Shown here: positions 5,053-47,742 of the stretch, piece by piece
Layout: every line of letters begins with the position of its first letter
Numbering within the stretch: the first letter of the stretch is position 1
NCBI GenBank assembly: GCA_000165345.1
Contig: CM000434.1
Location: forward strand, 1,216,001-1,280,000
DNA length: 64,000 nt
Direction of reading: 5' to 3'
Position numbers and translations under genes: made by a program
Notes under the pieces: model-generated
Seen by the model: only the letters and a program-made list of their open reading frames with translations
Databases searched by the model: none
Told to the model about the DNA's origin: nothing

Positions 5053-7530
5053 CTAAACCATTAGCTTTAATTCCGACATTTGACTTTGGAACAAGTTATA
5101 GTTGGCCTGGACTCCTACAGTTCCTACAAGTCTTTCAGGATGCAATGCAGGAAGGCCAAGAATTTGTTCAATACTTGGAATTTGATCAATATTTGGATTC
5201 AACATGGCATTCAAAAGTTCCTTCACATGACTAGATAACTTTAAGTATAGGTTATCATTTTTTGATTCAAAGCTATAATATTCTCCAGTTAAGCAAAAGT
5301 ATAAAAGAACACCAATCATATAAATATGTATTTTTTCAAAAATGTCACAAAAGCGTCCAATGTCCATTAGTTTATTCTTAAGGAGCTTAATGTTATCTAT
5401 ATTAAATATATAACCGTCAGAATTAATGGTATCTTTAATAATTGGAGGAAAATAATTAACAATATCATCATTTTTTTGGCCTTGAGTAAAGCTACTACAT
5501 CGCATCAAGTTTGTTGGATATTTCTTCTTAAAAACAATATCGTCTTGTAGTGAGTCAACCTTCGAGTCTAAATCAATTAGATCCAATGGCCCTAATAATA
5601 AACAACTCTCTTCTTTTCTAATGTATACTCTACTTGCTTTTATTGGGAAAATAAAACTTTTCATTTTTTGTTTACCATTATCTTCTTTGAAGGAGGAGAA
5701 CAAAAAGAAAAGCCTTAGAAGAGACCTAATATACATTAAAGACGTGGACTCTCCAAGAACTCCATTTAAATTTATATATGAAAGGATATCATAGCATTCC
5801 ATATGAGGATAAATCTCAACAATTGTAGAGTTTAAAGACAAAGGAGTATACCATTCAAATATTCCAGAGCATAATACAATATCAGAGACTCCTTGATTCA
5901 TTTGCCTGTTCCTAATACTTTTCGAGTTTAACAAAGAATGGACATTACAATTTTGTTTGAGAAACGAAATAATTTCTAAAGGAACTTCTTTTTCTTTCAT
6001 TTGGCTAATTTGTGAGTTGAAGGCATTCTTAATAATTCTCAATCTTTCAAATGATTCTTGCATCACTACTTTCAACTTGTGAGTATTGGAGGAAATGGAT
6101 ACATTAGAAGAGAACATTGATTCCCTCTGGATTTCATTCTTTGCTGAAAAATCCAGTCTATATAGCTTCAGTACACAGGGAACTAGTTCAGTAAAGTCAA
6201 AAGCTGTCCAGCAGATACTCCTTCTTCCAATACCAATGGGATTTAGGAACATGTGGCGATTATTCACAGTAGAAGGAAAGTTCGAAAGAGGCGAAGATTC
6301 CAAAAGCTTTAGAATATTTGATAATTTAATCAGTAAATTCCTTTTTGTCTTTAAGGCTGACTCCTTTTCTTGAAGTTTATCACTAAGATACCTGGAAAGA
6401 ACTGACCTACAATGCAGACTAAGCTCACTATCGTCGTTAATCATCTTGTTTTCAAGATTCCGATAATTACTATATGATTCATCATCCTCAAAACCCATTT
6501 CATTAAAAGATGAAGAAAAGATGGAGTTATTATCTTGGCTATTCAAATGACTCCGTATTAACTTCCCTTGTAATTCTGCTATTTTATGATGCTGATTTAC
6601 CAAGTCCATTGCATCTGCTCCCATATACCAAGAAGTATTCTTAATATGAACAATCTCCTTATCTTGGCTCATTCCAACATCATCCATAGTTTGGATATCC
6701 GAAAATTTGTCTAATCTCGGAAATCCTACTTGAGAAGTCAAATAATTAATGCAAATGTGCAAAAGTTTTCTTTCTGAGATCGTTAGTTGTCTAAGTCTTG
6801 GTTTAAGAAGGCGAATACCTCTCTCAAGCTCATTTTCTATTGAAAGTTGAAGTTCAATATTAATCTTCATCTCTTGTTCAAGACAATCTATTTGGTTCAT
6901 ACAATCTTGCCAATTTTCCATGAAAGCATTAAAATCTTCTTCATTTACCTGCTCAATCAACTCCTGAGATAACTCTACTGTTTCATAAAGCTTCGATGAA
7001 GCTGGCTGGGTATTTGCAAAGAATATTGGACTCTCAAAGTTGTCAGTTAATCCAATAGGACAAGATCCTGTTGCATTTGGTTCAGAAAACCGTCTTTCAA
7101 ACATTTCAAACTTTTCTGGATTAATCTTTGACCAAAGCATTCCTCTTAAACCTCTGAAATCAATTGGATCTGGGGCTTCACCCCTTTGGCTATCTAATTC
7201 ACCATTATTCATTTCAGAATCTTCTCCTAGACTGTCTTTTGATTGGAACTCTTGGCTTGCAGGACAAGCAACAATATCACCACATCGACACATTCCATTT
7301 TCAAAGTCATTACAGCATTCTCCTTTCAATTTCTTATGACTAATGGCTTCGAGAACTCTTGGCTCTCTAAAATTCTGTGGATAAATTAAAACACCAGGAA
7401 CTGGTCTATAACCCGTTCTTTTGGGGGCATTTCTAAGAAACAGCTTTCTTATATCTAACTGGTTGGATCTTTTTAGTTCATCTCCCAAACCAGAATCCTT
7501 ATTTTTTCTGGATCGCTTTCTTTTGCTCAT
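5053..7530 (-). CDS. Hypothetical 825-aa protein with a basic, Cys-containing N-terminus, a central coiled coil and a degenerate protein-kinase-like (pseudokinase) C-terminal domain.
   Basis: ATG start. The C-terminal part has kinase subdomain IX-like DIGRFCDIFEKIHIYMIGVLLYFCLTGEYYSF (compare DIWSLGVILYELLTG.PPF) and a subdomain-XI-like tail, but no HRD or DFG. The coiled coil is enriched in E, L and Q heptads. Confidence 0.5.
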   Translation of the reverse strand: MSKRKRSRKNKDSGLGDELKRSNQLDIRKLFLRNAPKRTGYRPVPGVLIYPQNFREPRVLEAISHKKLKGECCNDFENGMCRCGDIVACPASQEFQSKDSLGEDSEMNNGELDSQRGEAPDPIDFRGLRGMLWSKINPEKFEMFERRFSEPNATGSCPIGLTDNFESPIFFANTQPASSKLYETVELSQELIEQVNEEDFNAFMENWQDCMNQIDCLEQEMKINIELQLSIENELERGIRLLKPRLRQLTISERKLLHICINYLTSQVGFPRLDKFSDIQTMDDVGMSQDKEIVHIKNTSWYMGADAMDLVNQHHKIAELQGKLIRSHLNSQDNNSIFSSSFNEMGFEDDESYSNYRNLENKMINDDSELSLHCRSVLSRYLSDKLQEKESALKTKRNLLIKLSNILKLLESSPLSNFPSTVNNRHMFLNPIGIGRRSICWTAFDFTELVPCVLKLYRLDFSAKNEIQRESMFSSNVSISSNTHKLKVVMQESFERLRIIKNAFNSQISQMKEKEVPLEIISFLKQNCNVHSLLNSKSIRNRQMNQGVSDIVLCSGIFEWYTPLSLNSTIVEIYPHMECYDILSYINLNGVLGESTSLMYIRSLLRLFFLFSSFKEDNGKQKMKSFIFPIKASRVYIRKEESCLLLGPLDLIDLDSKVDSLQDDIVFKKKYPTNLMRCSSFTQGQKNDDIVNYFPPIIKDTINSDGYIFNIDNIKLLKNKLMDIGRFCDIFEKIHIYMIGVLLYFCLTGEYYSFESKNDNLYLKLSSHVKELLNAMLNPNIDQIPSIEQILGLPALHPERLVGTVGVQANYNLFQSQMSELKLMV

Positions 7531-7831
7531 ATATTCAATATTTTAATATAATTAATCCTATTTATTCTTCGGTTTAACTTAAATATACCCCACTATACAT
7601 ATTATTTCTCAATTTATACTCTTTCAAATTTACCTCGAGAAATCAAAATGGATCAAATTGCTCAATTCAAAAATTAAATTCGTCAAAGCTGGCAAATAAT
7701 CATCTTCTGTTTTCGAAATCTTAAAATATAAATTTCTAAACCCCTCTCACAATTAAAAAAAAGAACAAAAAAATTATAAAAGCTTTCCGGTACCCAAAGT
7801 CCGGTATATAAAGAGAAAAAAATGTAACACA

Positions 7832-7848
7832 CTTTGGCGGTAAAGTGT
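7832..7848. promoter_or_regulatory. E2F-like half site (ctttggcggtaaa) about 300 bp upstream of the 5053..7530 gene.
   Basis: TTTGGCGG resembles the E2F core. It is in the intergenic region, preceded by a 19-nt poly(A) at about 7922. Confidence 0.2.
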
Positions 7849-8122
7849 GGGGAAACGCTATTAAAAACAATATTAATAAAATGCAAAGGGAGAAAAAACA
7901 ATATAAACTGGTAATATTATTAAAAAAAAAAAAAAAAAATGATTATAAACTTAAAATATGTAAATCCTAACCTTATGACAATATTTGAACTACTTTAGGT
8001 AACTTATCATTAATAGATGATACTTATATTTTCAACCATTGTAAATTCCTGATAGCTTTAACTTGTTTTAAAGAGCATAATATTGTTATTCATATTATTA
8101 TTTTGTAAATTTTATTCTGTTC

Positions 8123-10330
8123 TCATTTTGAAGAGATCTCTACCTTAAGTCTGGAGTTTTCCAGAGTGCAATGTGAAGGGATAAGTTGATTTGAATTTAG
8201 TACGTAGTTTGCAGCAATTTGGTTGACTATCACACTATTTAGTAGGAATTCTGCTCCAAATTCCCTATTACAAAACCAAGTAACTTTAATTGGACCATTA
8301 TATGAAGTTTCATCATGATCAGATTCTCCTAAATGTATCAGTTGAAGAGTGATTTGTGCTTGGAAGATGCCATCTTTAACTTGGAATTCAAGAATTTTTG
8401 GTAGGAAACTAAACATTTCCAGCTCAATTTTGGATTGATCAATATTCTTAAATTCTGTATGTTGGCCAGTAAAGAAGGACCAACTAGACAGTATTTGGAT
8501 GTCTTTTGCATTGATTAAGCCTTTCTGACTATTTAGAAGTGATGATTTTGAGAAATCATCGAATAATAATTCAAGATTGATTGGGACTTCTAAATTGTCT
8601 GTATATGGTGATATAGTAATAGTACTATGTGGAATTCCATCATTCATATTATTTACATTATTTGAGGAACCTTCTAAGCTTTGATTAACTCCTGGAATAA
8701 TAGTTTCCCTTTCTGGAGGAGGTATTGCTTCTGGAAAATGAGAAATTGAAGATCCAGATTGATGCATGATTCCAATATTTTGATCTAAAGAAGTAATAGT
8801 AAATTGCCCTCCATCATTAAGTAACCCTTTAATACTTAGAGCTTCCATCTTTGGAGTCTCATTATTGCTAATTAAATACCCATAGAAGGTTGTTCTTAGT
8901 TTTCCTCTAATTTGAACCATTAGTTGAGGTGTAATAACCAGAGATTCAACAGAAATGCTTGGCATAGGGATTTGTCTTAAAGGAGGTGGTGGCAGTACTG
9001 CCAAATTTAAATTAGTTTTTGCTGATCTAATTGCAGAATCCATTAATGGAGAAGAACTTCCTACTCCATGCAAATCTAGATCAAAACTCTTGATAGGTAT
9101 GTGATGGCTTGTATTTTCTCCAAAATCTAATGATGGCCTTAAACTCTTTAAAATTACTTCATCCTTAATAAGATTATGCATATTTAAAGTACCTTTAAGG
9201 CTCATTTCAGACTTTCTTCCTATTAATATATCCGAATCATCAATTTTTACGATACCAAGATAGTTATTTCGGTGAAATACTCCCAAGAAGATTTTTCCTA
9301 AATTATTTACAAAGATTCTTCCTCTATAATCATAATTAACCTTGGAATTAAATATAATATTGGAATTGTGACCAACTTCTCTATCAAAAGATATATCAGA
9401 AAGTTGTACATTTGTAATAAGCTCTTTTAATGGCATTGAAATTGTGAATTTTTTTGACATGATTTGGTTTTCATCATTATTTTGTATTCCTGGAACAACC
9501 ATTTGAGTCTTTACCATTACATCTGTAAATCCTTTTGTAATAATATCATGTATTATTCCACTAATACCTACCATATGTGTAGCATTTGAACTTGCATGAA
9601 TCATTACATTCAATTTATCAGATTGAAAAATATCTAAAGAATGAGGACTACTTATTCTCGCAATTGGAATAGAATTCCATTCAACTTTTGCATTTTCTAA
9701 TGGTAAAACCACCTTTGCATTTCTAATTTGTAAACCTTCTTTTGGTGGTGCATTAATATTGACCATTAAAGATGTTTCCAATTTCTCTTGTCCATGATCT
9801 GTTCCAAAATCCACAAATATATCTTCTACATTAAATTCTAAATCTTTAAGTAAAGTTTCATTCCACCCTTGGCTTTTTCCCAAATAAAAGAAAGCTCCTA
9901 GTATTCCAATAATAAAGATAAATCCAATTAGTATTGTGAATACTACATAAAACAACCTATTGGAAGTAAATATTGGTCTCCTTTCATAATTATTGGATTC
10001 TATGTTTTCATTTGGATGACTTTTGTAATAAGCATCACTTTCTTTCATCTCTTCACCTTGTATTCCACATGTATTGTTTCCATGTGTTTGCGGAGTTTTA
10101 ATATCTACAATACTATTTGGGGATCCAATAATGGTGCTGGGACTAAACTCTTCATCTAGATATAGTTCACTTGCTGGAGATTGAATTCTTAGAGAAATTA
10201 CATCTCTATTCTCTTCCCATGATCTTGCATCAAAGTATCTTGCTGATGGATGAGAAACTGTTGAAATAGATGGAGTTCTTACTGTATTAATTACATCCTT
10301 ATTTTCTTCGGCATTATTATTGGCTTCCAT
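8123..10330 (-). CDS. Hypothetical single-pass membrane protein of 735 aa, with one TM about 130 aa in and a large C-terminal domain.
   Basis: ATG start. TM is FYVVFTILIGFIFIIGILGAFFYLG. Long stop-free ORF. The architecture (cytosolic N-terminus, one TM, large domain) is shared with the adjacent divergent gene at 11175. Confidence 0.55.
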   Translation of the reverse strand: MEANNNAEENKDVINTVRTPSISTVSHPSARYFDARSWEENRDVISLRIQSPASELYLDEEFSPSTIIGSPNSIVDIKTPQTHGNNTCGIQGEEMKESDAYYKSHPNENIESNNYERRPIFTSNRLFYVVFTILIGFIFIIGILGAFFYLGKSQGWNETLLKDLEFNVEDIFVDFGTDHGQEKLETSLMVNINAPPKEGLQIRNAKVVLPLENAKVEWNSIPIARISSPHSLDIFQSDKLNVMIHASSNATHMVGISGIIHDIITKGFTDVMVKTQMVVPGIQNNDENQIMSKKFTISMPLKELITNVQLSDISFDREVGHNSNIIFNSKVNYDYRGRIFVNNLGKIFLGVFHRNNYLGIVKIDDSDILIGRKSEMSLKGTLNMHNLIKDEVILKSLRPSLDFGENTSHHIPIKSFDLDLHGVGSSSPLMDSAIRSAKTNLNLAVLPPPPLRQIPMPSISVESLVITPQLMVQIRGKLRTTFYGYLISNNETPKMEALSIKGLLNDGGQFTITSLDQNIGIMHQSGSSISHFPEAIPPPERETIIPGVNQSLEGSSNNVNNMNDGIPHSTITISPYTDNLEVPINLELLFDDFSKSSLLNSQKGLINAKDIQILSSWSFFTGQHTEFKNIDQSKIELEMFSFLPKILEFQVKDGIFQAQITLQLIHLGESDHDETSYNGPIKVTWFCNREFGAEFLLNSVIVNQIAANYVLNSNQLIPSHCTLENSRLKVEISSK

Positions 10331-11174: not shown

Positions 11175-12217
11175 ATGACAGATTTTGTGACAAAAAAACT
11201 AGAAGTAGAAAATAAAGCTTCTAAAAGTGAAAATAGTGAGGAAATCGATTTAAATAATAAGGAAACATTTGTAAATCAAGTAGTTAGTGATGAAAATACA
11301 ATTTGTACAAGAGGAACAGAATCTTCGATTTTCACAATCTTGAGGAATTCAAGGAGAGAACATTTCTTTGATGCTCGTATAAAGTTATATAAAGAGAAGC
11401 TTAGTTTAATGGAGAAAGAAGGTAAGATGAAGTTCAGTAAGGGGATAAACTCTCGAAAAAGTATGCAAAGATGTTGCAAAATGAATAAATATCAAATATA
11501 CCGTATATTGATTACTATTTTGGGAGTTTTTTTTATGTTATTAGCATTGTTTGGTGTATCATTCTTATTGTTGCTTCCAAAGATTGCTGAAATTCAAATA
11601 AGGAACTCAAAAATGGATATTCAAGAAATCAATGTTTTTCAGATTAGTAGGCAGAATGGAGAAACTTCATTTGAAGTGGATTCAATATTGGCTATAGATA
11701 AAGTATCAAAGTACAAGACTGAGTTTATTCATTCATTAATGCAGATAAGCTATGGAATAAAAGGAGAAGAAACTAAATCTTTGGGTGAATTATATATTTC
11801 ACAGATGTCTGTGAATGAGGATGGAATTTTAAAAGCAAGAGGAAGATTTACAATAAGGAATAATGAATCACTTAATGAATTGATTAATTACATGACATCA
11901 AGTTTGAATGTTAATAACAAGGATGAAGCTATAGAGAAGAATATCACATTTTATGGGAAAGGTTTAATGTCTCTAAGGATCTTTGGAATATTACTAAATA
12001 ACATAAATGTGGATAGAGAACTGAGCTATTCTTCAGTTTATGGATTGAATGGAACGTCTGAAAGAAGTTCTATTAATGGAAAGGAGGTTAGAGACAGAGT
12101 TTCTTCTGATAATGCCCCACTTTCGAACAAAAATGGATTAAAAATTCATAATATTTGGTTAAACTCTCACAAAATGGGTGGTATGAGATTGAATCTAGAG
12201 CTTGAACTTGATTTTCA
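11175..12217 (+). CDS. Hypothetical single-pass membrane protein, 5' part only. The ORF runs into the N-masked region, so its 3' end is unknown.
   Basis: ATG start. TM is ILITILGVFFMLLALFGVSFLLLLP. The ORF is open until masking begins at about 12218. The X-containing continuation in the track is not interpretable. Confidence 0.45.
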
Positions 12218-15180
12218 NANANNNANNGNTNANAATNGNANANNANNNNNNTNNAANNAGNTNTTNNNNNNNNNNNCNNNANNTNGNNNATANNGNNNNC
12301 TNANNNNANNNNTNNNAATANNNANAATNNNANNTNNNTANTGCANANTCNNNTNGTNNNATGNAANNNTNCNNNTTCANNTNNANNANNTTNNNNNTAN
12401 TNNNTNNGNTTTATTNNNNGNGNANNNNANNANNNNNNATNNNNNNNNNNNNCNATAANNANNNTNTTNNAAAANNNGNNANNTCCNANNNNNTTNNNNN
12501 ANNNAAANNNNNNNNNTNNNGANNNGNNNNCNNNNANNNNNNNNNNNNNTNATNNNNNANTGAANNNNNNANTTNTNNNTNNTTTAAGNNGTNNNNTNNN
12601 ANNNNNATNNNNNNNNNTNNNTNNNNNNNNNNNNNNNNNNNNTNTCNNTNNNNNNNTCTNTCTNNNNTNNNTNNNTNTNTNNNNNTNTNNNNNTNTNTNC
12701 NNNNCTCNGATNANNNNNNNNNTTACTNNCTNNNANNCNTAAANTNNNNTTANATTNANNNNNTGNNCNNGATTANNNNNNNNANAANNNTAANNNCNAN
12801 NNNNNNTANNNCNNNNNNNACTNNNNNAANNNACCNGANNNTNNNNANNNNNNNTTNNNTNNNAAAGNNNNAAAAAAANNNNNNNCTTNNTCNNTNANAA
12901 ANNTNNNNCNNANCNCNNNNNAANNNTGNTNCNNNANNNNCNNNNNCGNNTNNTNNNTNATNANNNNNNTNNNTNNNNNNNNANNGNTANNNNNAATNNA
13001 NNNNNNNTNNTGNNNNNNATNTANAAAANNNTNNNNANTTNTNTCANNANNTNNNNNTNNNNANNNNTNNNNANTNNNNGNTNTNNATNNANNNAANNAN
13101 NNTNTNNNNNTCANNNNANNNNNNNNTNTNNNGGANNATNNNNNNNANNNAAANANNNNCNNNNATAANGNNNNNCNAAANNNTACANNNNTNGNNNNTT
13201 NNANANTNNCTNNNNTTANTTANTNNNNANTNCNANAANTTANNTNATTNNNANNNNNATANANNNNNCNNTNACAAGNATNNTNNGNNNNNCTNNNTNN
13301 AATNNAANANTNANACNANNNNNNNNNNTNNNNANACNNNNNNAANNNCCAANTNAANNNNNATNNANNNTNNNNNATNNGNANATGATGANNNTAANNN
13401 NNANGANNTANNNNANNNNNNNTNNNANNTNANNNNNNNNNNANTNCNNANNNNTNTNNTNNNNNNNNTNNNNCANNTTNTANNTCNNNTNNCANNNNNN
13501 NNNANNANNNTTNNGANNNGNNNNNAAANNNTNNTTATNNNTTNCTNNNNNNNNNNNANCCNNANTNCTANAGANANNCNNNNNNANACNATNNGNANNN
13601 NATTNNANCTNNATGNNNGNNNACNNNNNNNTNNTNNNGNANTNTNNNNNNNNNNTNNTNTNNNANTNANNNNNNNNNGNANANNNTTNATNNNTNNAAN
13701 ANNANATNNNNNNNTNNNTTANTNNNANNAANTANANNANNTNTTGANNNANNTNCNNANNNNNTANANTNATNNTNTNANNNANTNTNANNNNNTTCNT
13801 TNTNANNNNNGNTAAATNNNNNATNNNNGNNNNANNANNTNNNNTNGNNNTTANNNNNANTGAANNNNNAANNNATTNNTNTNTNNANTNNTNNAATTAT
13901 NCTNAATNNTTATNNGAANANNNATNNNANNTTTTGGANANNNAATNNAAAAGNNNACNNCNNATNNNNNANNANNNNNNANCNNNTAATAANAANATAA
14001 NNNNANNANNNATNNNNNNNTANATTTAANNNNTNNNNNNNTNNNNNTANNTNNNNCTATTNTTNAACTNNTTTTNNCNNNNNNNANTNNNNNNAATANT
14101 TNTNTCANTNNTAAANNNNNGNNNANNNANTNNNATNTNANNNNAGNCNANNNNNNNNNNANTCNAATNNCNNNTNTNATNATNANNNNNNANNTGAAAN
14201 TNGNNTNNATNNTGANANANAANAAANANNAAANANAANNATGNNNNNNNNAATNNNANNNNANANAAATTANANTNNATNNNNNANTNNNNNTTNTTNN
14301 AGNNNAATTNATNNNNNANNNNNANTNNTGANNNANANTNANNANTNNTNNNNNGNNNTANGNTNTANGTNTNANTNNCNATTATNNNNNNNTNNNNTNN
14401 NNNANNNNNTNNNNGNNNNNTGNTGNCNTGNNATNNTANNNNTNNNATNATNTNAANNNANTNNNNNANNNNNTNTNNNANNNNNTNATANNANNNNACN
14501 AANNNNNNNNNNNNNNNNNNNTNNNANNNNNNTNNTCNNANNNCATNNNANNNANGNAAAGANTNNANANTNNNNTNNNNNANNNAANNTNACNNNATTN
14601 NANNNTNNNNNTNTANTNNNNAAANNAATNNANTNGNTNNNANNNTTTNNNNTNNANNNNNNTNNNNNTAANTNAATNANTNNANNANNNNNTNNNCNGN
14701 NNNTNAANNNNNNNNTNNNTANNNGGNGNNANNNNNTNNNNNNNANNNTNNNNNNNNNATNNNNTNNNANNNNCANNANANNNNNCNNATNNNTNNATNN
14801 NNGNNNNNTNATNNNTNNNNNAANTNNNNNANTANANNNAATGTANTNATNNNNNNNNANTTGNANGANNGNNTANATNNNTNNNANANNNNNNNNNNNN
14901 NNTTNATANNTNCTNNNANANNNNTTGATATACAGTNGNNTATNAGNTNTCAATANNCNANANTATGTTGAAANTATGNAANTTNNTNTAANNANGGNTN
15001 NACTGNNTNTTTNNNTTGGAAAAGATGTCNANANGANCNNNTANTCAGCNNTNANNNAGANTCNNAGANANGCNTATNNTTCNGCNNACNAAGTNGANTG
15101 TATCGNAGTCAGNNTGTNATGNTNTTGNTCCNNNTGNAGTTCANGNNNTCNNATGANGNANTNGATCNNGAANTAGANNA
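12218..15180. other. N-masked or ambiguous block. About 70-80% of positions are n, with masking density falling off toward the 3' edge. Contents are unknown.
   Basis: Direct observation. Every ORF with X residues here comes from n being translated as X. Confidence 0.95.
12643..12706. repeat. Probable polypyrimidine (CT-rich) low-complexity tract inside the masked block.
   Basis: Every unmasked base in this roughly 60-nt stretch is t or c (tntc..tctntct..tntntnt..ctc). Confidence 0.3.
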
Positions 15181-15337
15181 ANATNANGAAGAAAAATTAC
15201 ATATTAAAGCTATTAATACTCCTCATGGTATACCATATTGGCTTGTTCCAGTATTTGAATTTCTCAAATTACCAGCTTCCAGTACTTTAAGTAGTCTAGA
15301 TTCAGCAGAGTTTGGATCAGTTACTTTTTCATAATTT
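15181..15337 (+). CDS. C-terminal fragment of a gene whose body lies in the masked region (...EEKLHIKAINTPHGIPYWLVPVFEFLKLPASSTLSSLDSAEFGSVTFS, then stop).
   Basis: Unmasked stop-free tail ending at TAA 15335..15337. Its frame differs from the 11175 ORF, so the link to that gene is unresolved. Confidence 0.3.
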
Positions 15338-15541
15338 TATATTATATAATGCAAATATATAGATTTTGTAATATTGCGCCAAGATAACCACTTTCATGTT
15401 AATACTCACAAATTCAAATTATCATTTTTGGAATAAAAAAAATAACAGGTGTGAATTTGAAAAACAAGTAAAATCCTTGTTATTACATCATTAAAGGAAC
15501 TCATATATTTCCAAATTTATTTTAAAAGAATTTATAACTTC

Positions 15542-17470
15542 ATGGATGATATTTATTTGGCAGAATTTCATGGTTTTATTGATGAAAAAACATGGGAAAT
15601 TGCTAAATTAAGTATACATTATCTTCATACACTTAAAGAAAATATAATAAAAGTCTTGGAAAATGGAGGTACACTTGAGAAATATTCTCATTTAAGAGAT
15701 TTAATTGAAATTGTAAGAATATGTATTTTACATGGTATTTTAATTGGAATAAATTATTTAAATAAATCAGAAGATAATTACAAATATGATTATGGTTCTT
15801 TGTATCATTTTGTAAGAATATTCCCAGAACTTAATGAATTAGGAAAAGTTGATGATATGTGTTTTTTATCATTTTTATTAATGAATAAAGTATTTACTGG
15901 ATTTCTTGAATCTATTAAAAATCCTTCATCAAAATGGAATCAAAGAATAACAATGTATTATCATCATGCTAGTATTTTGAGATATAGTGAATTCTTGAAA
16001 GAGTTTATTTTAATAATCAACAGTTTTGAAAATTGTCTAAGAATCAAAAATTTCCATATTCCTAATAATTGGATGACTTATTTTGCAAAATTATCATTAA
16101 GATGGAATAATTTTGGAAATGATCAAACAACAGAAATATCAATTATTAATGAGAATTTTAAGAATATTAAATATAAAACAAAACAATATAATCATCATGA
16201 TCAAAAAATTCTTAAAAATCTTACAAATATTAATGATATAGAAATTGATTCTAAATCTACTTTAAGTATTTTATTAAAGCAAGAATTTGAACAAAAGATC
16301 AATTTTAAAGATTATAATATATTTGATGATAGAGCTTTTATTTCAAAATCAAGTATATTAAATTCAAATAATGAATTGGATCCAGATATATTAAGTGATA
16401 ATAATGATCATATTGTTGTATATAATGAAAGAAATATTCAAGATATTGAAGATTTATTGGGGGATATGTGGTGTCCAATGTTTGATTATTCTCCTATATC
16501 TGAAAAACTTTATTTAGAAAATGAAGAAGAAAATTTTGTAAATTATGATAATGAAAATAATAATAATAATAACAATAATGACAATAATAATGAATATAAT
16601 AAATTACAAGAAAAAGATGAAAAAAATAATATAGAGTTAAATAATATTTATAATTATGAAGATATTAATCATTATATAAATATTAATAATGAATCAGATT
16701 TATCTAATTTCAAGATTAATTATGAATTAAAATTGATAAAAAATGATAATAATGAATTGAAAGAAAGGTATTTATCTTATTATCATATTCCATTAAATAA
16801 ACAAGAAGAAAGGTTAATATTAGAATTACAAGATTATAAATGTTTTACAAAACATTGTGAAAATATATTAGAATTTGATCAAGAATCTAAATTGAATTTC
16901 TGTTGTTTTACTGGTTATTATTATTGTGATTATTGTTATGGATCAAATACATGTTCAATTTTACCAGGTCTTCTTGCAAAATATGGAAATTTAACACCAG
17001 TTCCAGTATCAATTAAATCTAAAGAAAAATTAAAAAGTCTTGAAAATATACCATTGATTAAGATTCATTCATTAACAGCTGAAATATGGGAATCTAATAA
17101 GTATATTAAACAATTGGTATATTTGAAATCATATTTATCATCATTATTAATTATGAATGATAATAATAATAATAATAATAATAAATGTCAATATAAAGAA
17201 TCAATAAAAAGAAGATTATTAAGAGAATATGATATAATATATCAATTTGGTAGATATGAATATTTTTCAGTAAATCAATTAACAGAAATAGCTTATGAGA
17301 TATTTTCACAAGAGGTTACAATGTATTCAAATGAAACAAATATTCAAATTACTGTAAGAGAAATGAAAAATATTGCAATCAATTGGAGAAAACATTTATT
17401 AAAATGTATACATTGTCAATATCAAAATAAAAATTCAAAGAAAGATTTAATTTTATCTTTAAAAGAGTAA
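15542..17470 (+). CDS. Rubicon/PLEKHM1/DEF8-family protein: RUN-like N-terminal domain plus a C-terminal cysteine-rich Rubicon-homology (RH) zinc-finger domain, with poly-Asn insertions.
   Basis: ATG start. The C-terminal FCCFTGYYYCDYCYGSNTCSILPGLLAKYGNLTPVPVS...LIKIHSLTAEIW...KQLVYLKSYL...CIHCQ aligns with Rubicon [38 protein letters not shown]...LLIKIWNDPL...CMLCQ. The N-terminus is a RUN-like helical region. The middle has Asn runs encoded by (AAT)n. Confidence 0.5.
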   Translation: MDDIYLAEFHGFIDEKTWEIAKLSIHYLHTLKENIIKVLENGGTLEKYSHLRDLIEIVRICILHGILIGINYLNKSEDNYKYDYGSLYHFVRIFPELNELGKVDDMCFLSFLLMNKVFTGFLESIKNPSSKWNQRITMYYHHASILRYSEFLKEFILIINSFENCLRIKNFHIPNNWMTYFAKLSLRWNNFGNDQTTEISIINENFKNIKYKTKQYNHHDQKILKNLTNINDIEIDSKSTLSILLKQEFEQKINFKDYNIFDDRAFISKSSILNSNNELDPDILSDNNDHIVVYNERNIQDIEDLLGDMWCPMFDYSPISEKLYLENEEENFVNYDNENNNNNNNNDNNNEYNKLQEKDEKNNIELNNIYNYEDINHYININNESDLSNFKINYELKLIKNDNNELKERYLSYYHIPLNKQEERLILELQDYKCFTKHCENILEFDQESKLNFCCFTGYYYCDYCYGSNTCSILPGLLAKYGNLTPVPVSIKSKEKLKSLENIPLIKIHSLTAEIWESNKYIKQLVYLKSYLSSLLIMNDNNNNNNNKCQYKESIKRRLLREYDIIYQFGRYEYFSVNQLTEIAYEIFSQEVTMYSNETNIQITVREMKNIAINWRKHLLKCIHCQYQNKNSKKDLILSLKE

Positions 17471-17510
17471 AATATATTTATATTTATTTCAAGATTCAAA
17501 CTTTCTTTAT

Positions 17511-17580
<70 letters not shown>

Positions 17581-17850
17581 TATTTGCTGAATAAATATCC
17601 AAATATTTCCCCTCATGGTGCCATTTTGGATTTAATAATTATTGCAAAAATGCATTTATTGAATGGAAATCAATTATTAATATTATAATTTCTAATTGGA
17701 AATTCTTTTTTTGTTCTTGAAGAAAAAAAACTCTCAAATCACTCAGTTATTTAACTTTATTATTATTTTTCTCAACTTATTTTAATTTTATATTTAAACA
17801 AAAAAAAAAAAAAAGAAAAAGTTATCAAAAAGTTAAATACTTAATTTTGA

Positions 17851-19558
17851 ATGTGGAATTTTTATAAAAAAATACCAAATATTAATTCATTTTATTCAGT
17901 TGGAAATGGAGAAGAAATAATACAAAGATTAAAAGTCAATAAGAAAGCATTATTAGTTTCAGGAGAAACTGAAGATTATAAAGGATGTACAAATGATATT
18001 ATAGAATATGCAGTAATACTTTCAAATATATATAAATTTAAAGAAATAAGAATTTTATTAAGTGAAAGTATCAGAAATTTTATATGGAAATTTTATATCA
18101 TTATCATTAAGTAGAATTAATGGAGCAATAATACAAATAGTAAGATTGTCAAAAAAATCTCTCAAAGAAGGATTTCAATGGTTAATTTCTATGGAAGAAA
18201 ATACAGGAAATGAAAACTATTACTCAGAATTTTCAAATATATATAGAGGAAATGATAATTTTGGGATGAATTTCTCAAATAATATTTATGATTTAGTATT
18301 TGTTTATTCTGGTCCAGTAAAATTTTCAAAGAATGATATTAATATTGATAATAATACAAATATAGAAAATGAAGCAGTTAACGGTCCATTTTTTTTAATT
18401 TCAAAAGGAAAAAAAAATGATAAAGATGAATATGATTATGATGATTATATAAGTTTTTCAGATTTTGATAGAATGATATTAGAAACAAATTCAAATAATA
18501 AAGGCAATTTGACATGTTTTTTGGATTGTAATTATTCATATATGTTTTTATCAGATTATACAAAAGGAGAAGAATATTGTAATAATAATAATAATAATAA
18601 TAATAGTAATTATGAAAATATTCGATTTAATCATCATCGAATATCAACAATGCCAGAAATAAATAATAATAATAATAATAAAGATCTCTTAAATATTAAT
18701 CCAAATAAGACATCTTATTACAAAAAGAGAGATCTTTCTGTAATAATATTAGCATCATGTTCTTCTTCAATACAAGATTCACAAGAAATTAAATTATGTT
18801 CAAATAATGGTATAGGATTATCAATAATATATAGAAGATTATTTTCATATTTTATTCAATCAATAATAAGATATCATTTTGAAAATATAATAAATAAAGA
18901 TAATAATCAAAATTTTCAATTAATTCCAAGAATTACTTTAAAATCTTTAATTGAAGAGATTTCAAGAAATATGTTTCATTATTTAACAAAAAATCATTTA
19001 AAGAATCAAATTCCAATATTATTAGCATCAGTTGGAATTTCAACACAAGATAATATATTATTAAATAATGATATGAATAATATAAATATGATGAATTATT
19101 TAAATGATGGTGATTATATTATTGGTAATTTTGATCAAAAAAATAAAATTAATTCTAATATATCATTATCATCATCAAATAATATAATGAATTTTAATAA
19201 ATTTCCAATAAAGAATTTAAATATGGGAAATAATAAAAGAATATATAATAATAATAATAATAATAATTGTTATATGTATCAAAGAAATATTCCAAATATT
19301 AGTATTAGTCCAAATTCTAATTCTAATTTGATTCAAGAGATTAATCAATTAAGATCAGAATTATCTTATTTAAAACAAACTATCAATTCTGAAAATATTG
19401 CTCGAAATTTCAATTATAATGAAAATAATTATAATAGAATAAATAATGGATATAAAAGTTATTGTCCTGTTCAAATTTTCAATTCAGATACTATTTTTAA
19501 AAAAAGTGTAAAACCATCATCAACTATAACTCATCATAGAACATTCACATCAAAGTAA
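17851..19558 (+). CDS. Asn-rich hypothetical protein. The gene is split between two reading frames with a break near 18062..18114, which is either an unannotated short intron or a frameshift.
   Basis: An ATG-initiated 87-codon stop-free ORF (17851..18114, frame 1) overlaps a 498-codon ORF (frame 2) whose track start is GTG. An 87-codon stop-free stretch in AT-rich DNA argues that the upstream piece is coding. Candidate intron 18069..18111 (GTATCA...TTAAG) or 18111..18144 (GTAGAA...GTAAG) would fuse the frames. Confidence 0.35.
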
Positions 19559-44607: not shown

Positions 44608-47418
44608 TCACTTTGGAGGATACTCTATTCCCTCCTCCCGTAGAGCTTGGATGAGCTGATTCAGCTGAGATGGTTCTCCATTATATTTAATTCTCCACTG
44701 TATTGCCAAGTATCTAGATTTTTCAAAACCGTAACTTTTTACACTGAAGTTCTTTGTCATAGAAACACCATCTATATCATATTGAGTAACCCAACGATGT
44801 ATTGTGGGGTTATACGAGACTCCATCAATATGTGGCCCAATGAAGAATCTTTTTCGACCATCAGGGCTTGATTTGTCTTCAATATCTATATACATTGAGT
44901 CACTATATGTAGTTAAATCACAACCATGCATGGATACTGAACTTCTGGAAGATGGGGTTCCCAATTTTGAAGGAGAGTCCAAATTCCCTAAAATATTTCC
45001 TGAAAAATCCAATTCCGCTCCAGAATTGGTCTTTAATGGACTGCTTTCACTTGTCTTTGGGTCAATTTCCTCCTTTAATCCTTGGATTAATTTTTCTTGT
45101 CTGGTTTCTTGATCCTCTGTTTCATTTGTTAAGCTTCCAAGTACTTTTACTGGCTTTTCATTATCTTCTCTTTTCTCAAGATCTTCCATTTCTACGTCTT
45201 TTGATTTAGCTGTATCAGTAACTTCACTCTTAGTTCCAGTTAAAGTTTGTAAATCCTCTCCTTTTTGGCCAATTGAATCAGAGTTGGAATGCATAACGGG
45301 TAAGGGGGATTTTAAGTCTGATCTACTGCAAGCCAAAAGTGATTCCCTAAGTATCTGTTCTTCCTTACCTCCGTGGTTTTGTAAAACTGATTTATATCTA
45401 TTCAGTAAAGAATTTACCTGTTCATTTTCCTGATCAGTTGGAGTTGTCACTAAAAAATCTCCCTTTGATGGAATACAAAGATAATATCTTTCTGATCCAT
45501 CCTTTAACTGTCCCTTATGTATTGTTAAATCCTCAAATGAGACATCTTGCAGAACCCCATCCTCATATGCAGGGAATCCCTGGATTACAGTTTGTAAGAA
45601 TTCACTTAATTTTTCAACACCCTTTGTGCTTGAATACATACTTTCTCTATATTCAATAGCGAGCTGACGAGATCCCTCAAATCCATAAGCTCCAATACTG
45701 AAATACTTATAACGCTTCCTACCATCCTGCCCAACATAGCCAGTTACCCATCTATTTTGGATTTTGTCATAACGTATTCCTTCTATCACTGGTCCAAAAT
45801 AGTACTTCTTTCCATGATATACCAAAAACTCCTCCCCAGAAGCAGATTTCCTTGATTCTGATCTGCCTCCTGTATTGTGCTCAGAAGAAAAGCTTTGTGT
45901 CCCATTAGTTGATTGGCCTGTTCCTGGTTCAGCTTTTGAACCTGAAAGATTTGTTGCAATCCTTATTCTAAATGATGAAGAAGACGTTGGCTGTCCTTCT
46001 CCTGAGACATTTAATACACTCCCATCAGCCCCCTGAGAATCCCTTCTTTTTGGTGTAAATACAGCTCCTTTTGAAGCTGAAGCTCTCGAGGAAGTCTTTT
46101 TAACTGGAGTAAACGATGTATCATCAGCCAAACCTCCTGCTTTTTCGATTGCAAGATGTTTAGCCTTTTCCGCACCAAATTCCTCAACAGAAAAGACATT
46201 CTCTTGTTCCAGAGTATTTACCAAGTTCTTACAGACCCAGGAATCCTTTTCTTGGTCATAAAACACCTCATAATCAGGATTTTGCAAATTTATAGTATCT
46301 ATAGCCGAATTTCTTGTATTATATGCAGAAGGAGATGATCTACCTGAACGGCCTGTGCCTTCTATAGATCTTCTACTTCTTTTGTTAGTTCTAGTAGCTT
46401 GTACTGGAGTGCCAGTTTGAATCTTATTATTGATATTAGCAAGTTGTTCTCTTCTATATTGAATGGCCATTTCTCTTGCTGTATCATATCCATATTGTTT
46501 AACATTAAAAATTCGACTCCTTCTAATGCCATTTTCCGTCCAAACTGCAACCCAACGATCTCTATTTTTCTCATAAGTAACACCAACTTCATTTCCACCT
46601 TTTGATGGTGAATTATTTGAAATACAAGGCTTCCCTCCACTGCTCAAACTCGTAGTTTTCTCAGATCCTGAACCACGTTCTTCATTATGTCTACCGCTTT
46701 GTATAAAATCTCCTCCACGTCTCACTTCCATAGTGACATATGTCTGATAAACCAATGGAAGTACCAATTCCCCAGATAAATTAGCCGGTTTCCACTCGAT
46801 TTCTGGCTTACCAATTTTTCCTTCAAGGCTTTCTGATATTTGAGATACTGATTCTAATTCGCAGTCTGCACCAGTAAACATTCCATCTAACCACTCCCTA
46901 TAAGAGTCTAGGTGAGAAATTGCACGAATACAAACTTGAGAATCACAATTCTCAATATCTAAAGGGTAACCCTGCGAATCTTCAGTAACATTACTAGACC
47001 TCATTTTACGAATCATATCACTAGACATTTTTTGACTATTATCAGGCTTCATCTTCTCGTTAATCTTTAATCCAATAGATTCTATTATTTTTAGATAAGG
47101 ACTAAACTCTTCCTTGCTGATAGCTCCGTATATTTGAGCTATATGAAACATTAAATTATCCCCATATTCTCCCCATAAAGGATATAAATTTGAAATATAT
47201 CTTAAAAAGAAGTCAATACAAATTAATTCGTAGTCTAATTCCAGTTCTGATTGTTCTAGTTTTGTACATTCATCTTTTTGACTAACCACAATATTTTGCC
47301 CAGTTTCAAGAGATGAATTTGTATTATCAGTATTGCATTCGGTACTTAGAACCATATTTGTCTCTTTTGCAGATTCTTCTGCAATCATCTTTGTATCCAT
47401 TGGCTCTTGAATTTCCAT
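44608..47418 (-). CDS. ApiAP2 transcription factor with four AP2 DNA-binding domains.
   Basis: The track start is TTG (47424); the first ATG is 47418 (MEIQEPMDTKM). The four AP2 domains are: VTYEKNRDRWVAVWTENGIRRSRIFNVKQYGYDTAREMAIQYR; VFYDQEKDSWVCKNL...FSVEEFGAEKAKHLAIE; GIRYDKIQNRWVTGYVGQDGRKRYKYFSIGAYGFEGSRQLAIEYR; GVSYNPTIHRWVTQYDIDGVSMTKNFSVKSYGFEKSRYLAIQWR. Confidence 0.8.
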   Translation of the reverse strand: MEIQEPMDTKMIAEESAKETNMVLSTECNTDNTNSSLETGQNIVVSQKDECTKLEQSELELDYELICIDFFLRYISNLYPLWGEYGDNLMFHIAQIYGAISKEEFSPYLKIIESIGLKINEKMKPDNSQKMSSDMIRKMRSSNVTEDSQGYPLDIENCDSQVCIRAISHLDSYREWLDGMFTGADCELESVSQISESLEGKIGKPEIEWKPANLSGELVLPLVYQTYVTMEVRRGGDFIQSGRHNEERGSGSEKTTSLSSGGKPCISNNSPSKGGNEVGVTYEKNRDRWVAVWTENGIRRSRIFNVKQYGYDTAREMAIQYRREQLANINNKIQTGTPVQATRTNKRSRRSIEGTGRSGRSSPSAYNTRNSAIDTINLQNPDYEVFYDQEKDSWVCKNLVNTLEQENVFSVEEFGAEKAKHLAIEKAGGLADDTSFTPVKKTSSRASASKGAVFTPKRRDSQGADGSVLNVSGEGQPTSSSSFRIRIATNLSGSKAEPGTGQSTNGTQSFSSEHNTGGRSESRKSASGEEFLVYHGKKYYFGPVIEGIRYDKIQNRWVTGYVGQDGRKRYKYFSIGAYGFEGSRQLAIEYRESMYSSTKGVEKLSEFLQTVIQGFPAYEDGVLQDVSFEDLTIHKGQLKDGSERYYLCIPSKGDFLVTTPTDQENEQVNSLLNRYKSVLQNHGGKEEQILRESLLACSRSDLKSPLPVMHSNSDSIGQKGEDLQTLTGTKSEVTDTAKSKDVEMEDLEKREDNEKPVKVLGSLTNETEDQETRQEKLIQGLKEEIDPKTSESSPLKTNSGAELDFSGNILGNLDSPSKLGTPSSRSSVSMHGCDLTTYSDSMYIDIEDKSSPDGRKRFFIGPHIDGVSYNPTIHRWVTQYDIDGVSMTKNFSVKSYGFEKSRYLAIQWRIKYNGEPSQLNQLIQALREEGIEYPPK

Positions 47419-47742
47419 TTCCAAGAATTAACTTAATTGTGTAACTTCTATAAATTATTAGTTTTTTTACTTTTTTTTTTATTAACTAATTAATCTCTTT
47501 AACTCCTGGACCTCGTCTAGAGTGTCTGATTCTGATCTCAGACTCTTCTTTCTTCTTCGCCTCAACCTTGCAACCGTTTCTCAAATTCTTGATTTTTTCA
47601 TAAACTTTTTACAATTTCCTGTCTCATTTATTTACCCTCTTTTTCTAACTTTTTTCTCAATAGTTTGCCTCCTAATACTTGCTTTGGCTGACGCCTAAAC
47701 GCATTCAAACCTTTCCTCCCCCTCATCCAATATTTTCACCCT

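Follow-up and report, generated by a model that had tools for sequence, protein, structure and literature searches.

An ambiguous-base block on Cryptosporidium parvum chromosome 6 conceals one intact gene, cgd6_5190

The 64-kb stretch of DNA analysed here (the window) belongs to chromosome 6 of Cryptosporidium parvum; it is compact and AT-rich, with 31% GC and almost no introns, and its products include a three-AP2-domain protein, an Aurora-like kinase and ABC proteins. All 1766 of its N's are confined to one block (12218..15187; 2970 positions, 59% N). An ATG-initiated open reading frame (ORF) runs into this block from 11175, and a clean coding tail comes out of it in another frame and ends in a TAA stop at 15332–15334. 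What does the block conceal, and how did it arise? An earlier note, made from the letters alone, had described a masked stretch of ~3 kb hiding one or two genes. The stretch is real, with its 3′ end at 15187 rather than 15180 and a true hidden length of 2791 nt; the tail is also clean and in a different frame, as the note had it, with the stop ending at 15334 and not at 15337.

A single open reading frame beneath the block

Unmasked copies of the locus are available from eight sources (three NCBI assemblies and five read-based contigs), and in each of them the interval is a single uninterrupted 3981-nt ORF with no N and the same neighbours, the copies differing from one another by 0–2 nt. One newer copy (L001, with the ORF at 5813..9793) served as the reference for our alignments. 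The visible ends of the gene are 100% identical to it (to 12217 and from 15188), gene order is conserved in all loci, and all visible bases within the block fit the gene with no mismatches in an alignment that allows insertions. The concealed gene body that the earlier note had suspected thus exists: it is cgd6_5190, which on the evidence of the eight unmasked copies spans 11175..15334. That note had also left the choice between one hidden gene and two to an unmasked assembly, and in eight of eight public copies the ORF from 11175 and the C-terminal tail are one gene, encoding one product of 1326 aa (P0002) that equals QOY41407.1 and WRK33128.1 (cpbgf_6005190, CPATCC_0016830). The frame difference between the two clean ends arises because the block holds 179 extra columns (179 mod 3 = 2); it is non-biological and involves no splicing.

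The note had further supposed that anything unusual in the window would lie here, and had named low-complexity intergenic DNA as the contrary outcome. Neither describes the unmasked interval, which is coding and in which we found no tandem repeats, Rfam families or further ORFs of at least 90 aa. The block conceals only one ordinary, intronless, single-copy gene. The orthologous proteins of C. hominis and C. meleagridis share 98% and 93% identity with its product, with no indels, and cgd6_5190 is an intact, conserved gene for a large membrane protein that is already annotated in newer assemblies of C. parvum, C. hominis and C. meleagridis. The features discussed here are collected in table 1.

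Table 1. Features of the window, in window coordinates
Feature	Position	Strand	Details
cgd6_5190 as drawn in the window	11175..15334	+	4160 columns including stop; true gene 3981 nt, 1326 aa, putative single-pass membrane protein
Clean 5′ part of cgd6_5190	11175..12217	+	codons 1–347 plus 2 nt; 0 mismatches to L001 at offset 5362
Predicted transmembrane helix	11496..11576	+	aa ~108–134; only strongly hydrophobic segment (Kyte-Doolittle)
Dense zone of the block	12218..14924	.	~62% N; ~161 spurious inserted bases; codons ~348–1197
T/C-only stretch	12611..12704	.	every one of 36 successive true A's masked, as are nearly all G's; ~half of T's survive
Sparse zone of the block	14925..15187	.	~33% N; insertion rate likewise ~7%; survival ~0.54–0.66 for all four bases; codons ~1197–1278
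Clean 3′ part of cgd6_5190	15188..15334	+	codons 1279–1326 plus TAA stop; 0 mismatches to L001 at offset 5541
Downstream gene cgd6_5200 (EAK90091.1)	15542..17470	+	Rubicon-homology domain, PF13901, E 3.6e-10
ApiAP2 transcription factor ORF	44608..47424	-	938 aa, three AP2 domains; apicomplexan marker of the window

Anatomy of the block

The N's are dispersed base by base, in runs of 1 to 20 whose lengths are distributed approximately geometrically, with an autocorrelation of N positions of ~0.05 and no 3-base periodicity across 12218..15187. Their density had been described in the earlier note as declining gradually toward the 3′ edge; it is instead flat at ~0.62 to ~14924, falls in a single step to ~0.33 (maximum-likelihood change point 14925, log-likelihood gain 42) and stops abruptly at 15187. 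Like a conventional assembly gap (for example, a run of 100 N's), the block leaves the underlying sequence unreadable and breaks gene models. Unlike such a gap, it is no placeholder: called bases make up 41% of its columns, every true base has a column, and it is 179 columns longer than the sequence that it stands for. An assembly gap, sized or unsized, is accordingly rejected, the longest run of N's being 20 and all 2791 true bases having columns. The earlier view of the block as low-confidence or masked sequence, and not a sized gap, therefore stands, whereas its description as deliberate or quality-based masking is less favoured than an assembly artefact, for reasons given below.

A simple mask is likewise ruled out, since ungapped overlay of the public sequence in the register of either flank gives random-level mismatch within the block. 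The offset to L001 is 5362 on the left and 5541 on the right, a surplus of 179 columns over 2791 true bases. When gaps are allowed and N is treated as a wildcard, the alignment scores 823 (137 ± 8 for shuffled letters), and the optimal solution places 179 insertions in the window, in 159 events that are mostly single-base and evenly spread, with no deletions and no mismatches. Inserted bases amount to approximately one per 17 bases (~+6% columns), and ~15% of the surviving letters are spurious. The surplus cannot consist of extra N's alone, as at least 108 visible letters would then have to be errors. Indeed, the observed minimum of unavoidable visible insertions is 112, compared with 115–120 in simulations in which all inserted columns are visible and ~36 in simulations in which they are masked like true bases, from which it follows that practically every inserted column is a visible, unmasked letter. 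Their composition is nearer genome-like than uniform; those in the sparse zone are GC-rich (13/18), and inspection of that zone rules out homopolymer slippage as the origin of the extra bases.

Masking fell on true bases selectively. N stands in place of approximately 63% of the 2791 true bases. Survival in the dense zone depends on the base (A 0.38, T 0.42, G 0.17, C 0.20; total ~1.16), in proportions near genome composition; in the sparse zone all four bases survive in a similar range (table 1). We found no dependence of survival on homopolymer length, on the preceding base or on the fate of the neighbouring base. Codon position 3 has the highest survival, and within each zone survival is unrelated to cross-species conservation (0.65–0.69 for 0 to 3 orthologues agreeing); these two tests rule out the N's as marks of divergence from a homologue. 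The sparse zone begins inside the most conserved C-terminal region of the protein (aa ~1178–1326, window ~14900..15334), a placement that shows no residue-level relation and looks coincidental.

A pyrimidine tract had earlier been noted at 12643..12706. The visible letters there are indeed only T and C, far beyond chance: a run of 36 masked true A's, as observed at 12611–12704, was reached in none of 5000 simulations. The underlying sequence is nevertheless ordinary mixed coding DNA, and the apparent tract is an artefact produced by the local loss of A and G to masking.

Provenance and possible origin of the block

The window carries the marks of one particular assembly. Beyond the block its identity to newer C. 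parvum assemblies is 99.98%, and it has small indels of its own, among them an extra A at 18062–18067 (GTGAAA here, GTGAA in newer assemblies) that frameshifts a gene encoding 568 aa elsewhere (P0006; 17851..19558 affected). The resulting 455-aa product (18191..19558) matches EAK90092.1/XP_627842.1 of C. parvum Iowa II exactly, and a single contig is on record for it. This extra A is a second error, or else a private variant, of the 2004 assembly within the window. Further small differences from newer assemblies, at ~7922–7941, ~16400, ~17723–17750, ~18580 and ~19792, comprise length differences in A/T homopolymer runs and in an (ATT)n repeat, a 3-nt indel and a few SNPs; these are ordinary strain or assembly variation. 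The genes that flank cgd6_5190 carry consecutive Iowa II accessions, EAK90090.1 upstream and EAK90091.1 downstream, and no Iowa II accession for the 1326-aa product is among the accessions listed; visible fragments of that product were absent from the protein collection searched.

The 2004 Iowa II assembly contains 10 gaps and 14,600–18,558 ambiguous bases (PMC8744675; PMC6742220; bioRxiv 10.1101/2021.01.29.428682), and low-quality stretches that split ORFs in it are on record (Baptista et al. 2022, PMC8744675; Isaza et al. 2015, PMC4637869). The orthologue table of a 2015 study that used the Iowa II reference lacks both cgd6_5190 and cgd6_5210 (PMC4637869). The block has the properties of an Iowa II ambiguous-base stretch: it originates in that assembly, its N's are mixed with called bases and absent from later assemblies, and the gene model is disrupted. 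It resembles the published CpIRef ambiguous stretches (PMC8744675; PMC4637869) in belonging to the same assembly, in having N's among called bases and an ORF split or hidden, and in being resolved without N in IOWA-ATCC, IOWA-BGF and other newer assemblies. It differs from the published account in that those papers give totals only, and the stretches that they name lie on chromosomes 2, 4 and 5; we found no published description of this chromosome 6 stretch or of its detailed make-up, with +6% spurious columns, survival biased toward A and T, and two levels of N density. The kind of defect is thus already known in the Iowa II reference, as is the hidden gene, through its annotation in newer assemblies. 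We conclude that the block is very probably technical and not biological in origin, an artefact of chromosome 6 in the 2004 C. parvum Iowa II reference, with the N's presumed to stand in the deposited record itself. Users of that reference lose cgd6_5190 here and obtain a truncated cgd6_5210, and tools that take the letters left in such a stretch at face value will report false frames and false composition tracts.

As to how such an artefact could come about, we hypothesize that the block represents a consensus between two signals, the true sequence and a second one that is unrelated to it and AT-rich. Where the two signals agreed, a base would have been written; where they disagreed, an N; and columns present in the second signal only would have entered as bases. 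The second signal might have come from a mixed template, or from an alignment or join forced during finishing. We propose this because survival resembles base composition, because the extra columns are unmasked and AT-rich and because a local stretch retains only T and C, and we hold it tentatively, at somewhat less than an even chance. Three results count against it. The frequency with which neighbouring bases survive together does not reflect the dinucleotide biases of the genome; chance agreement in its simple form does not account for the sparse zone, with its ~0.6 survival for all bases and GC-rich insertions; and searches for the second sequence by N-wildcard local alignment gave control-level scores against the remainder of the window on both strands and the fetched loci (~85 kb in all), as they did against the reverse complement of the gene and against the gene with the main diagonal forbidden (a shifted register).

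The mask is near-memoryless, its density changes once, cleanly, between two levels, its edges are sharp and no substitution is required; this is unusually tidy for raw sequencing noise and speaks against an assembly artefact. An alternative in which a database, or the pipeline that prepared the window, added N's and extra bases to a clean Iowa II sequence, as deliberate masking or corruption, would fit the near-geometric runs, the lack of positional autocorrelation, the two flat levels with their sharp step and edges, and the fact that no substitution is needed. Some of the sequence collections used are described as holding masked stretches, and a word-indexed homology search with the visible 347-aa N-terminus (11175..12215) returned no match, although an identical and a 93%-identical full-length protein are in the collection. 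Such late corruption would nevertheless leave unexplained why no Iowa II protein is among the accessions listed for this gene when both neighbours have consecutive ones, and why the 2015 comparison based on Iowa II omits it; ORF-splitting ambiguous stretches are, moreover, documented for that very assembly. Nor would a simple synthetic mask keep A/T twice as often as G/C, spare inserted bases of genome-like composition or blank 36 consecutive A's, and we consider this origin unlikely. Masking by a quality threshold, in which poor single-read coverage left bases below a cut-off that were then replaced by N, would suit an assembly made from Sanger reads in 2004 whose low-quality regions are acknowledged, and the 263 less masked columns at the 3′ end look as if they came from better data. 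It would, however, be expected to show a ramp in N density on the scale of read lengths, of which there is none over 2.7 kb, and some effect of homopolymers or neighbouring bases, which is also lacking; it sits poorly with ~15% of surviving letters being spurious insertions in the absence of any substitution, and with survival probabilities that mirror base composition. Simple quality-threshold masking fits worse than a consensus of two signals, and we judge it improbable.

As a further alternative, the block might record real heterogeneity. If the middle of cgd6_5190 existed in the sequenced isolate in a second, highly divergent version, allelic or paralogous, that was merged into the consensus, this could account for sharp block boundaries inside one gene and for a less masked zone (aa ~1197–1278) within the most conserved C-terminal part. 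Against this, survival is independent of conservation and is highest at codon position 3; the 159 indel events are nearly all single-base and their total is not a multiple of 3; no second allele is seen in any of the eight assemblies and read sets, among which the largest difference is 2 nt; and the protein has diverged by so little in the sister species, at the 98% and 93% identity given above, with no indels. A merged second allele or paralogue is therefore extremely improbable. Returning to the consensus of two signals, we also regard it as highly improbable that the second signal was a real alternative sequence at or near the locus in the 2004 DNA, such as a structural variant, a biological chimeric clone or a second parasite population; if it was, the block would be a trace of heterogeneity once present in the Iowa II isolate and since lost, rather than mere noise.

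The cgd6_5190 protein and its neighbourhood

The predicted protein consists of an N-terminal region of ~107 aa, one predicted transmembrane helix (a Kyte-Doolittle scan over 19 residues finds a single segment above 1.6, at aa 106–142) and a C-terminal region of ~1190 aa, a layout that points to a protein crossing the membrane once, with a large non-cytosolic domain rich in strands. An exhaustive phmmer search with aa 127–1326 against 1.84 billion representatives at 50% identity recovered only three full-length relatives (56, 46 and 34% identity), presumably from other Cryptosporidium species as judged by length and colinearity; the family was detected only in Cryptosporidium-like sequences. 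Across four divergent members of the family, the C-terminal ~150 residues (aa ~1178–1326) are by far the best conserved part. We found no mention of cgd6_5190 in the literature, no relatives by sequence in the PDB, no meaningful NCBIfam matches for the product and no Pfam match to the visible ends of the gene.

The complete protein has a match to Pfam Tag1_C (PF22786) at aa 1059–1149 that reaches 19.5 bits (E 1.2e-3), below the curated cut-off of 27. A sub-threshold match of this kind occurs in four of six close orthologues (best E 6.5e-4) and in none of the three divergent ones (P0056–P0058). Like yeast Tag1 and LEA_2-like proteins, the cgd6_5190 product combines a short N-terminal region and one transmembrane helix with a large strand-rich C-terminal region. 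Unlike Tag1, it matches Tag1_C only below the cut-off, and the match is absent from the three divergent orthologues; an AlphaFold model of aa 127–1326 from a 6-sequence alignment is too unreliable for a comparison of folds (mean pLDDT 37.9). At 19.5 against 27 bits, we do not assign the protein to the Tag1 or Tag1_C family. The UniRef name of a C. hominis orthologue refers to an AsmA-like C-terminal domain, and this candidate was rejected as well, with no AsmA-type family found in Pfam or NCBIfam at E <= 1–10.

A paralogous relationship of cgd6_5190 to its neighbours cgd6_5180 (735 aa) and cgd6_5170 (825 aa) was also rejected (BLASTP E >= 0.6); for the 735-aa family, hhalign gave a probability of 0.9% and aligned only transmembrane helices, the 825-aa protein being compared by BLASTP. 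The Rubicon-homology domain of the downstream cgd6_5200 makes that gene interesting with regard to autophagy and endosomes in a parasite whose autophagy machinery is reduced. In the protein collection, a 90% cluster groups the unrelated neighbouring proteins of 642, 1326 and 568 aa (P0001/P0002/P0006), a mixture that probably stems from a fused gene model.
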